Assembly (NCBI GenBank): GCA_963790205.1
Contig: CAWBNQ010000003.1
Location: 800,001-864,000 of the forward strand
Direction: 5' to 3'
From: Nitrospirota bacterium
GTDB taxonomy: Bacteria; Nitrospirota; UBA9217
DNA: 64,000 nt
Positions within the stretch are counted from its first letter, which is position 1, and each line of letters starts with the position of its first letter. Of the stretch, positions 10,449-25,513 are shown one piece after another. A program made the position numbers and the translations under genes. The notes beneath the pieces were generated by a model that searched no databases, was not told the DNA's origin, and worked only from the letters and a program-made list of their open reading frames with translations.

Positions 10449-10695
10449 GATTATTTTCCCTTAACTATAGGTAGATTGCCACGACGAGCTCGCCCTGCAC
10501 CCGCGTTTCCACTCGTAAACGCCGGGCGCAGGCTAAGTACACGAAGAGATTCTTGGTGACAGGGTATTCTCGTGGGTAAAAAAGCACTTTCCAAAGAGGA
10601 GCATAATACAGTGCAAGGCCCAGTTTGTCAATGGAATAAATAGAGGATCATCTTTGATACGAGGGGCTTACAAAACTTCGGTTCAGGATGTTCAT

Positions 10696-10900
10696 GATCC
10701 TTTTCTTTTTCTGCACCGCCGCTCACAGCTCCGCGCAGACATGCCAGGATATCTTCTGTTTTACGTGCCAGTACGGCAGCCCATGAGCGCTTACGCTGCG
10801 CACGCGCATGCATGATCTGTGGTTCACCGGGCTCTCTACCGGGCATGTAAAACGCGTCCCTGTTCACGGGATGCAGGGGCTTCGGGAAAAGCAAAGACGA
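10696..10900. repeat. dispersed ~210 bp element, copy 2
   Basis: Same orientation as and high identity to 2595..2800. Confidence 0.9.
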
Positions 10901-10944
10901 AAAAACCTCTGCCTTCCCGTGCGCCGGACGGGACCGCGAAGCGG

Positions 10945-12321
10945 CTATTCCGGTTCTGAAAGCTTCCCGAAGGCCTTGAGCACGACTTCCGAGAGCGCCG
11001 GGTGGATGTGCATGCCCTTGGCCACGGCCCAGAGGTTGCCGTCAGCCGCCATGACGTTCACCACTTCCTGGACAAGGACCGACGCCTGGGGACCGATGAT
11101 GTGATAGCCCAGGATCTTTCCGCTTTTTCGGTGCACCACGGCCTTGGTAAACCCCTCGATCTCCCTCATGGCCTCGCCGCGGGCCACATCGGTGTACATC
11201 GCCTTGCCCACGAGGACCTCCTGTTTTCCCATGAGCTTGACGGCCTCTTGTTCCGTCAGGCCGACGGACGCTATTTCGGGATAGGAAAATACGGCGTGCG
11301 GCACCGTGAGGTAGTTGAGCCGCGACTTCTTGCCGTGCACCGCGTTGTGCCACACGAGCTCGGCCTCATGATTGGCCGAGTGGCGGAACATCTTCTTGCC
11401 GATGGCGTCGCCGAAGGCCCAGATGTCCTTTTTTGCGGTCTCGAAGAACTCGTCCACGACGATATAGCCCCGTTCGTCTGTTTTTATACCGCTCTTTTCT
11501 ACTTTGAGAAGGTCCGCGTTCGATTTCCGCCCGCATGCCAGAAGGAGATACTGCGCAGAATGCTCGAGACGCTTTCCATCGCCGTCCCGGGTAATAACAA
11601 TGACGCCGTGGTCGCTGTTTCTGGCATCGACGACCTCGGTATTGGTATGGACTTCCATCCGGCGGCCGAGCGCTTTTCTCAGCGCTTCCGATACTTCGGG
11701 CTCCTCTTCGGGGACGAGCCGCCTGTTTCGCTGGAAGATCGTGACCCTGGTGCCCATGGCTTCGAAGAAATGGGCGAACTCGGCCGCAATGTATCCTCCG
11801 CCTATGATGATCATGCTCTCGGGCCGTTTCGTGAGCTGCAGGGCGCTCTCGTTCGTCAGGTAGGGGACGGTTTCGATGCCCCTGACCGAAGGGACGAAGG
11901 GACGCGCTCCGGAGACGAGGAATATGGTCCTGCCCCTGATCTCCTGGCCATTTACTTCGAGCGTATAGTCGCCGGTAAAGTGCGCTTCGCCGAAATAGAA
12001 ATCGAAGTCCTCGGCCTTCTCCAGGGCCTCCTTGATGCGGTCATGGGTTTTCTTGACGTGCTTGCGCATCGAGCCCATGATCGCGGCAAAGTCTATCTCC
12101 TTGATCTCGGCCGTAATGCCGAACTTTCCCGCTTCCCTGATCTCAACGATTCTATCCGCCGGATAGACAATGAGCTTGGTGGGAATTCAACCGACGTTCA
12201 GGCAGGTGCCTCCGAGCGGCCCTTTGTCCACGAGGGCCACGGTCTTGTTATGGGCGAGGGTGTCCTCGACCAGGTTCGCCCCGGCGCCGGAGCCGACGAT
12301 GACCACATCGTATTCTTTCAT
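10945..12321 (-). CDS. class I pyridine nucleotide-disulfide oxidoreductase (dihydrolipoyl dehydrogenase/mycothione reductase-like), predicted selenoprotein C40xxxxU45
   Basis: GSGAG FAD motif; GGTCLNVG-TGA-IPTK is in frame with ORF 10945..12078 (GGGYIA, HIHPALSE); hairpin follows the TGA. Confidence 0.9.
12142..12174 (-). promoter_or_regulatory. bacterial SECIS-like hairpin
   Basis: UCUAUCC-GGC-GGAUAGA stem-loop with the loop starting 26 nt after the UGA at 12189..12187; lower CUCA/UGAG pairing. Confidence 0.75.
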
Positions 12322-12407
12322 GAGACCGCCTTTCAGAGGTGAGCGAACTTTTTCAATTCTATCATGTTTGCGGCAAGAGTCAATGCGGGGCCGGGAGGAC
12401 GGCGCTC

Positions 12408-22672: not shown

Positions 22673-23059
22673 TTACTTTCGTTTGACCTTTAGTACAACA
22701 ACTAGAGCCAAAACAGGAATTGGCACATCGCCATCGGTTTCCCAGCTATCGGAGGAGCTTCCGTTGTATGGTTTTAATGTTCTGCCATCCCATTCCCAGC
22801 TATCGGAGGAGCTTCCGTTGTATGGCTTTAATGTTCTGCCATCCCATTCCCAACTATCGGAGGAGCTTCCGTTGTATGGTTTTAATGTTCTGCCATCCCA
22901 TTCCCAACTATCGGAGGAGCTTCCGTTGTATGGTTTTAATGTTCTGCCATCCCATTCCCAACTATCGGAGGAGCTTCCGTTGTATGGCTTTAATGTTCTG
23001 CCATCCCATTCCCAGCTATCGGACGAACTTCCATTGTATGGCTTAATAGTTATGCTCAT
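22673..23059 (-). CDS. tandem-repeat protein (18-aa unit WEWDGRTLKPYNGSSSDS) with hydrophobic/basic C-terminal tail
   Basis: aaaagaggtg RBS; co-oriented with the island genes; repeat variants fall at codon third positions. Confidence 0.75.
   Translation of the reverse strand: MSITIKPYNGSSSDSWEWDGRTLKPYNGSSSDSWEWDGRTLKPYNGSSSDSWEWDGRTLKPYNGSSSDSWEWDGRTLKPYNGSSSDSWEWDGRTLKPYNGSSSDSWETDGDVPIPVLALVVVLKVKRK
22739..23047. repeat. 54-bp tandem repeat, 5 full copies plus a partial one
   Basis: Unit ttccca(g/a)ctatcggaggagcttccgttgtatgg(t/c)tttaatgttctgccatccca; no spacers. Confidence 0.97.
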
Positions 23060-24532: not shown

Positions 24533-25513
24533 TCAGCGGCCTTTATTTTTTTTCTGATATAAAGCTGCCATTGATTTGAGTTCGCTTGCCACTTCTTTTC
24601 TGAATTCCGGCGGGGCAAGAACCTCACAGTCTGATCCCCAGTGATAAATCCAACGCCGGATCTCATCGGTGCCCTCAAGTGTGACCTTGAATATAATCGA
24701 CCCGTCTTTCTTGGTTTCTATCTTTTGTGATGGATGCCATTTCCGCCTTGTTATCCAGCGAGACATGCCGTGGCTGAACCTCAATTTTATCTCTACGGGG
24801 CTGCCATATCTGATGATATGCCAGCCTGCTTTGAAGTATTCATCCATGGAGAATCCCTGTGGAATGACATAATTTCTATGGGTTGCCGCGACATTTTGAA
24901 TGCAATCAAGAGCAAATTCCCGGATGCATTTCTTCTCGTGGCAGTAGGCAAGAGTGTACCAGACCCCGTTGCTGTAAAAGAGGCCATACGGATTTATCAT
25001 CCTTTGGGTCATCTTCTGGCTTCCCATAGCGTGGTACGTTATATCCAAGCTGACCTTCTCATCAAGGGCTTTTTGCAACGCGTCAAATTGCTTTTGAACA
25101 GCAGAAAAATCGTCGACGGGGTCTATATCAAACCAGTAATTTGAAGAAACGGTTTTCAGCCTTTGTCCTGTTTTATGTCCAGTCCCAAGCGTGATCTTCT
25201 TCATAAGACCGCTGTAAGCATTCGCAATCCCATGTCCCAGTTTGGAGAGCACAGCTTTGCTTGCCAGCATGGCCCTCGCCTCGTCAGTGGACAAATCAAT
25301 TTTTTTGAGCGAATAGCCTTCGGTAAATCGATAAGAGGCGGCGTCCTCATTAAAATAGACGGGGAAATCAAGAGAAAGCGCTCCGAGGTCCCTGTACACG
25401 GTCCTTTCTGCTACGCCGAAACGTTCGGCAAGACCTTTAGCAGTCACTTTCCCTCCTTTATCTATAAGGCTCAGGATTTCAACCATCCTGTTAACTCGTT
25501 TCATATCAGCCAT
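24533..25513 (-). CDS. HTH-WYL-WCX transcriptional regulator (YafY/PafBC/DriD-like)
   Basis: LAERFGVAERTVYRDL HTH; PYGL...GVWYTLAYC...IREF WYL; WHPSQ...WIYHWG..CEVLAP WCX. Confidence 0.93.
   Translation of the reverse strand: MADMKRVNRMVEILSLIDKGGKVTAKGLAERFGVAERTVYRDLGALSLDFPVYFNEDAASYRFTEGYSLKKIDLSTDEARAMLASKAVLSKLGHGIANAYSGLMKKITLGTGHKTGQRLKTVSSNYWFDIDPVDDFSAVQKQFDALQKALDEKVSLDITYHAMGSQKMTQRMINPYGLFYSNGVWYTLAYCHEKKCIREFALDCIQNVAATHRNYVIPQGFSMDEYFKAGWHIIRYGSPVEIKLRFSHGMSRWITRRKWHPSQKIETKKDGSIIFKVTLEGTDEIRRWIYHWGSDCEVLAPPEFRKEVASELKSMAALYQKKNKGR

Follow-up and report, generated by a model that had tools for sequence, protein, structure and literature searches.

The gene studied lies on the minus strand at 12321..10945 of the window, by which is meant the whole stretch of 64,000 nucleotides that was analysed. 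Its reading frame, its NCBIfam matches and its predicted fold identify the product as a class-I flavoprotein disulfide reductase of 458 aa. The single internal stop in this frame is a TGA at codon 45 (12189..12187), and the motif around it reads GGTCLNVG-U-IPTK. The original prediction, made from the DNA letters, had the gene split by this TGA at the second cysteine of the motif, with a continued frame of 458 aa. Both points were borne out by the frame and by the ORF list, in which under table 11 only a 377-aa piece (12078..10945) was called. The first motif position is Cys40 (12202..12204, minus strand), which aligns with Cys39, the substrate-attacking thiol, of mycothione reductase (Mtr), and across the 75 motif-bearing genes, of which the window's is one, the codon of this first cysteine was always TGY.

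The warning that such a gene is easily misannotated proved justified. In a public protein collection the window's protein is stored in a cut form of 377 aa. All matches at 89-100% identity in a protein search were 377-aa pieces, and full-length matches reached at most 80% identity. No record with U was present among 120 matches, which does not count as evidence, since a stored sequence may give U as C. The matching assembled contigs show TGA at codon 45, and not the TGC or TGT that would speak against selenocysteine (Sec). Over 12080-12340 a contig of run X1 differs from the window at a single position of 261 (12261), and a run X3 contig, which comes from a different study, is identical over 12080-12250. 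The TGA is retained in each. The two are assembled contigs rather than raw reads, one of them possibly the window's own source.

A sigma-70-like promoter (10/12, a consensus match only) was found on the minus strand at 12356..12383. A terminator-like stem past the gene (10897..10920, minus strand) is at chance level for the region, with 3 found and 2.5 expected. Rfam gave no matches around the gene. Two intergenic stretches of the window (10640-10940 and 2581-2802) hold a repeat of some 220 bp that has 8 other long copies in the genome (83-94% identity); one copy lies just past selB, and the repeat has no Rfam match. Elsewhere in the window, a 128-aa ORF at 22673-23059 (minus strand) is built from an 18-residue unit repeated in tandem about six times and has no Pfam match; a WYL-domain regulator lies nearby (24533-25513).

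Conservation of the TGA codon and its hairpin

The motif was present in 74 of 80 related genome loci. The second-cysteine codon was TGA in 20 of the 74 and TGC or TGT in 54, and TGA was found at the first cysteine in none. All 20 TGA-bearing loci are labelled Nitrospirota or Nitrospirae, and their frames are otherwise open, two of them running off contig ends. A pattern scan of metagenomes returned 83 stretches. Among the 80 that were read, 51 are members of the window's clade, a second clade accounts for 21, and the other 8 are lpd-like singletons; as the pattern required TGA, these are counts and not frequencies. Homologues with TGA aligned to the cysteine, which had been proposed as a check, were in this way found both in genomes (20 of 74 loci) and in metagenomes (51 loci). 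A slightly broader TGA pattern had no match in 351 and 301 genomes of two other phyla, and the TGA pattern had none in viral contigs. A TGA-bearing sub-lineage (L029, L107, L131, L136, L169, L181) carries CSNVGU in place of CLNVGU.

A predicted bacterial SECIS hairpin lies at 12167..12151 on the minus strand (12151..12167). It has seven Watson-Crick pairs and a 3-nt GGC loop beginning 26 nt past the TGA, in agreement with the 7-bp stem and G-initiated loop described at that distance in the original prediction. The folding energy was -6.7 kcal/mol for the 17-mer, -7.5 for 40 nt and -12.0 for 50 nt. The bSECIS model, as given in PMC13188914, has a loop of 3-9 nt with a G, a stem of 4-16 bp, a distance of 16-37 nt from the UGA and an energy of -7.5 kcal/mol or lower. 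The geometry of the window hairpin (3-nt GGC loop, 7 bp, 26 nt) falls inside this model; the bare 17-mer misses the energy limit and the 40-nt region reaches it. The hairpin is of the same type as that following the TGA of selD in the same genome (8 bp, GGT loop, 20 nt).

The hairpin was rejected as stand-alone proof, given a z of -1.04 for the 64-nt region against shuffles and 1822 look-alikes in a loose scan of the whole genome, a scan whose noise kept it from cataloguing further selenoproteins of the genome. Longer lower stems were also rejected, being present in single folds only and absent from the consensus. As evidence, the predicted hairpin was therefore sound in its geometry and weak until Sec and Cys genes were contrasted. 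The 7-pair stem is formed in 21 of 21 TGA genes (window's included) versus 1 of 46 close Cys genes, a count that leaves out L087 and seven distant lpd-type loci. Among genes encoding YPADR, the exact hairpin codons were present in 20/20 TGA genes and 0/24 Cys genes; the genes are kin and not independent, and the Fisher p therefore overstates the contrast. Synonymous sites are fixed in the TGA genes only, and a perfect 6-bp core was found in 50 of the 51 metagenome loci of the window's clade. The outer stem pair varies between U-A, C-G and U-G, and covariation is thin, concerning one of seven pairs in three sequences and perhaps one or two events. Judged by these alignments, the hairpin is under selection only where TGA is present, and it is the conservation of TGA and hairpin, not the hairpin by itself, that provides evidence beyond chance.

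The window genome is 98.3% complete. The Sec machinery that had been named as a check was found in full: selA, selB and selD score above their cut-offs, and two tRNA-Sec genes are present (G000:C8:121705-121799 and G000:C1:656901-656993; L014, L015). The anticodon of tRNA-Sec is TCA and that of tRNA-Trp is CCA. In the 20 other TGA-carrying genomes selA passed its cut-off in 16 (and was in pieces in one more), while selB was present in 17, selD in 16 and tRNA-Sec in 17. At least two Sec markers were found in 18 of these 20 genomes, and none in two small drafts (2.0 and 2.5 Mb). Two or three tRNA-Sec genes also occur in 4/20 relatives. One genome whose reductase gene has the TGA carries a selA broken into three pieces and a partial selB (G005:C10:283075-285600), reflecting either decay or an assembly error.

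The conservation of the TGA, the hairpin codon contrast, the Sec genes and the close contigs keeping TGA together make it very probable that the UGA of codon 45 is recoded to Sec. Reading of the UGA as Cys or Trp, or as a regulatory stop, with another role for the hairpin, is highly improbable, as a tRNA-Sec (TCA) is present, tRNA-Trp is CCA, many homologues also use TGA as their terminal stop and the hairpin matches the selD type. A pseudogene or assembly error is largely refuted and can be regarded as extremely improbable. The 8 lpd-like metagenome singletons, which have TGA at the same codon without a strong hairpin, show that errors or dead genes occur, but 20 other genomes have TGA at this very codon in frames that are open elsewhere, contigs of two studies agree, and the synonymous sites are fixed in TGA genes only.

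Enzyme family, active site and candidate substrates

With C in place of U, the best NCBIfam match among the best 25 of 45 families was NF004947, at 587.1 bits versus a cut-off of 592; close relatives in 19 of 301 genomes passed this cut-off. Scores stayed below the cut-off for TIGR03452 (mycothione reductase, 379.5 versus 635.65), TIGR01350 (LpdA, 347.1 versus 408.8) and TIGR02053 (MerA, 337.4 versus 454.45), and well below it for the glutathione reductase model. The RclA model (228/740) and the HOSCN-MerA model (210/650) were far under their cut-offs. For TIGR03385 (CoA-disulfide reductase) the score was 77.5 versus 578.8, and the motif is UIPT, not UGxP. A C-terminal Cys-Cys pair is absent from the protein. 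The structure was predicted with a pLDDT of 92.6, and its top fold matches were mycothione reductases (TM 0.92). With TM values of 0.86-0.92 to the listed class-I members, the model indicates a fold of three domains that has sites for FAD and NAD(P)H. Two all-cysteine class-I paralogues, about 31% identical, are encoded elsewhere in the genome (G000:C3:631874-633133 and 1022687-1024051).

In lipoamide dehydrogenase and glutathione reductase the second cysteine supplies the charge-transfer thiolate. Residue 45 aligns with Cys44, the second cysteine of the solved Mtr. According to PMC10910545, the N-terminal cysteine in Mtr and glutathione reductase attacks the substrate and the flavin reduces the proximal cysteine, and by this chemistry and the alignment residue 45 is on the flavin side. 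The TGA at 12187..12189 (minus strand), the second position of CxxxxU, would on alignment, conservation and contigs encode a flavin-proximal Sec, as had been proposed. LpdA and glutathione reductase had been drawn on for comparison in that proposal; the closest characterised relative proved to be mycothione reductase instead.

Further sites are recognised along the minus strand. An N-terminal glycine-rich loop at residues 10-15 (12277..12294) is of the FAD-binding kind. The NAD(P)H-binding loop GGGYIA at residues 174-179 (11785..11802) contains Tyr177, which aligns with Mtr Phe178. It is followed by Gln197-Arg198 (11728..11733), without an acidic residue; Arg198 aligns with Mtr Arg199, which binds the NADPH 2'-phosphate. 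The second NADPH arginine of Mtr (Arg205) is Pro204 here, so that one of two is kept. Arg198 and the missing acidic residue point to a preference for NADPH, as far as residues can be read from the alignment. His440-x4-Glu445 (10987..11004) forms the acid-base pair, equals His442/Glu447 of Mtr and is invariant in 42 aligned homologues. Mtr (PDB 8QCJ, 8RX5; TIGR03452) is also the best sequence match (E 4e-85, 35% identity) and shares the positions of the Cys pair, the His-Glu pair, a flavin-shielding aromatic residue and the one NADPH arginine. Unlike in Mtr, the second Cys is encoded by UGA, and the genome has no mshC match above cut-off.

The enzyme can be pictured as a Sec-containing, mycothione-reductase-like flavoenzyme that reduces a small-thiol disulfide with NADPH in oxidative-stress defence, a statement that, taken as a whole, is given an even chance. 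SelB would bind the hairpin and deliver Sec-tRNA to codon 45. On the model of glutathione reductase and mycothione reductase, NADPH would reduce FAD, and FAD would pass two electrons to Sec45, opening a Cys40-Sec45 selenenylsulfide. Cys40 would then attack the disulfide of the substrate, with the movement of protons left to the partner subunit's His440/Glu445, again by analogy. Selenium would thereby be placed on the flavin side and not on the substrate side. From general selenium chemistry, this placement might provide faster flavin-to-chalcogen transfer, a shifted potential and resistance to over-oxidation.

The identity of the disulfide was approached through the genome. Glutathione, gamma-glutamylcysteine, bacillithiol, mycothiol and ergothioneine were rejected as substrates, since no marker gene was found in the 98%-complete genome: GshA, GCS2, BshC and EgtD gave no match, and MshC matched only below cut-off, the best score being 284 versus 485 bits. 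The 284-bit match is likely a CysRS. On the fold and the exclusion of known thiol pathways, the chances are evenly balanced that the substrate is another small disulfide. Precedents for such reductases are the haloarchaeal bis-gamma-glutamylcystine reductase and the methanogen CoM-disulfide reductase, as described in PMC7278568. The haloarchaeal enzyme was mis-annotated as MerA and its homologues as DLD, according to the same paper. Unlike in that system, no GshA or GCS2 match was found in the window genome, and H. volcanii gave no NF004947 match at E 1e-130.

NF004947 carries the name dihydrolipoyl dehydrogenase, and gcvH lies within about 4 kb in 11 related loci, with lpdA in both loci that were read. 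These facts would fit a Se-containing second dihydrolipoamide dehydrogenase serving lipoyl-GcvH, a role that is nevertheless quite unlikely. In the two loci read, the nearby gcvH runs on the other strand and is accompanied by a separate lpdA directly downstream of it, and the sole GcvH of the window genome adjoins a separate lpdA on another contig. No match to an E2 catalytic domain was found in the window genome, nor any E2 in M. acetivorans, which alone among the control genomes passes NF004947. The TIGR01350 score is under its cut-off (347 versus 408.8), and the nucleotide site appears to be of the NADPH type. With no E2 match and GcvH beside a separate lpdA, the family name is doubtful and the family probably misnamed. 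In the window genome an rnf-like gene run, so labelled from sequence reading, is followed by gcvH and lpdA (G000:C5:478541-486484); several relatives (L037, L084) have this arrangement next to the gene for the reductase.

The gene's neighbours in Nitrospirota are housekeeping genes, without a conserved redox partner. An order-level search aimed at Methanosarcina neighbourhoods covered small genomes and gave no shared neighbours. In all three Bathyarchaeia loci checked (L078, L082, L090; Cys forms) a superoxide dismutase gene lies within 3 kb, together with rubrerythrin in two, a flavodiiron-type gene in one and a ferredoxin:thioredoxin-reductase-type gene (rubredoxin fusion) in one. This antioxidant context comes from archaeal homologues at 45-48% identity, and most other distant loci were listed without it. 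Such oxygen-defence clusters, and the failure to find a known small-thiol pathway in the genome, would also suit a selenoenzyme reducing a non-disulfide oxidant at Cys-Sec, such as a sulfenyl or halogen compound as in RclA, polysulfide, selenite or a metal ion. RclA reduces HOSCN at the same two-cysteine site (PMC9335216). Reduction of such an oxidant is unlikely, though to be taken seriously: the RclA (228/740), HOSCN-MerA (210/650) and MerA (337/454) scores are far under cut-off, the C-terminal cysteine pair is lacking, and mycothione reductases rank first by both sequence and fold. Direct reduction of a small glutaredoxin- or thioredoxin-like protein, for which a glutaredoxin gene near one distant locus (L230) could speak, is improbable, given that the genome has a thioredoxin reductase above cut-off and that the protein has neither a C-terminal redox tail nor a conserved redoxin neighbour.

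Gain and loss of selenocysteine and relation to known selenoproteins

Among genomes of the window's family, 44 of 56 carry this reductase family; elsewhere in the phylum, 6 of 244 do. In a quick tree of 73 proteins, rooted at the midpoint, all Sec forms fall in one Nitrospirota group, with Sec at the base and Cys forms nested. This quick-search tree has 9 Sec/Cys changes, at least 4 of which are forced by well-supported branches. One gain of Sec followed by repeated reversions to Cys is the simplest reading of these sequences. An origin of the Cys forms through loss of the Sec machinery was mostly rejected, as selA is present in 26 and selB in 25 of the 30 Cys-form genomes examined (30 of 31 Cys-form Nitrospirota-type loci; L081 was left out). 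Selenium looks optional in the NF004947-type reductase, since Cys forms are common among Sec-capable relatives.

The second clade consists of 21 metagenome loci with about 31% identity and TGA at the same second Cys (L104, L105, L113, L115, L118, L121, L122, L132, L137, L145, L147, L155, L163, L164, L167, L170, L171 and L176-L179). Three of its loci were tested and matched NF004992 / PRK06370. Strong bSECIS-type hairpins, of two kinds, were present in 12 of the 21 loci; energies of -7.5 or lower also occurred in 8 of 31 Cys-form motifs, one of which is a paralogue, so that the hairpin speaks less strongly for Sec here than in the window's clade. In a FastTree of 55 rows the NF004992 TGA loci, mixed with Cys forms, make up a clade of their own that has full support, and Cys forms stand at the base of the NF004947 clade. 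This separate clade and the basal Cys forms indicate that Sec likely arose in NF004992 independently of the NF004947 clade, as judged from the tree. No host genome for the second-clade TGA loci was found among the genomes searched. A search of the window's phylum (151 genomes) gave no NF004992 match; another phylum had the family in 40 of 401 genomes, and none of the 30 loci read there carries TGA at the codon.

Mammalian thioredoxin reductase has its Sec in a C-terminal tail and an all-sulfur CxxxxC. The class-I fold and selenium are in common with the window protein, which, however, lacks a C-terminal Sec tail and scored 146 bits with the TGR model. In the CoA-disulfide-reductase type a single catalytic residue adjoins the flavin. 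That type has one redox residue, whereas the window enzyme has a CxxxxU pair. A flavoprotein of this type (UGxP), from the same superfamily, has already been catalogued with a predicted Sec (PMC13188914). It is among the flavoproteins of the 119 prokaryotic selenoprotein families in the 2026 Table 1 of that source, as are a type III sulfide:quinone reductase (HxxU) and heterodisulfide reductase A. A CxxxxU class-I reductase is absent from this table. Such a family was likewise not found in the accessible portions of deep-Sep (PMC12013277) and of the Haft and Gwadz preprint, nor in the BSepDB main text. Full-text literature searches, with subscription journals mostly outside their coverage, returned no paper describing a CxxxxU reductase, and no characterisation of the NF004947 / PRK06292.2-5 family was found in the literature searched. 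On comparison of sequences and motifs, the CxxxxU class-I disulfide reductase is very likely an uncatalogued selenoprotein type among the families compared. Gene callers cut such genes to 377 aa, and they are thereby lost from protein databases.

The Cys-form NF004947 / PRK06292.2-5 proteins belong to the same family, at up to 80% identity, but their genes have a Cys codon and no hairpin constraint. Natural Sec/Cys orthologues at about 80% identity make the question of selenium versus sulfur testable in one scaffold. The usual reasoning is that Sec serves as the better nucleophile. Selenium facing the flavin and sulfur facing the substrate would be the reverse of this and, if true, a kind of flavin-selenolate centre that has yet to be reported for a disulfide reductase. 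A broader proposal is that selenium arose at the flavin-facing CxxxxC position at least twice (NF004947 and NF004992) and often reverted with the Sec machinery kept, forming pairs of selenium and sulfur enzymes at about 80% identity that act on an undiscovered thiol of anaerobes. This proposal is tentative and is given slightly less than an even chance. Discovery of the substrate could reveal a thiol buffer of anaerobes in which genes for glutathione, mycothiol and bacillithiol have not been found.
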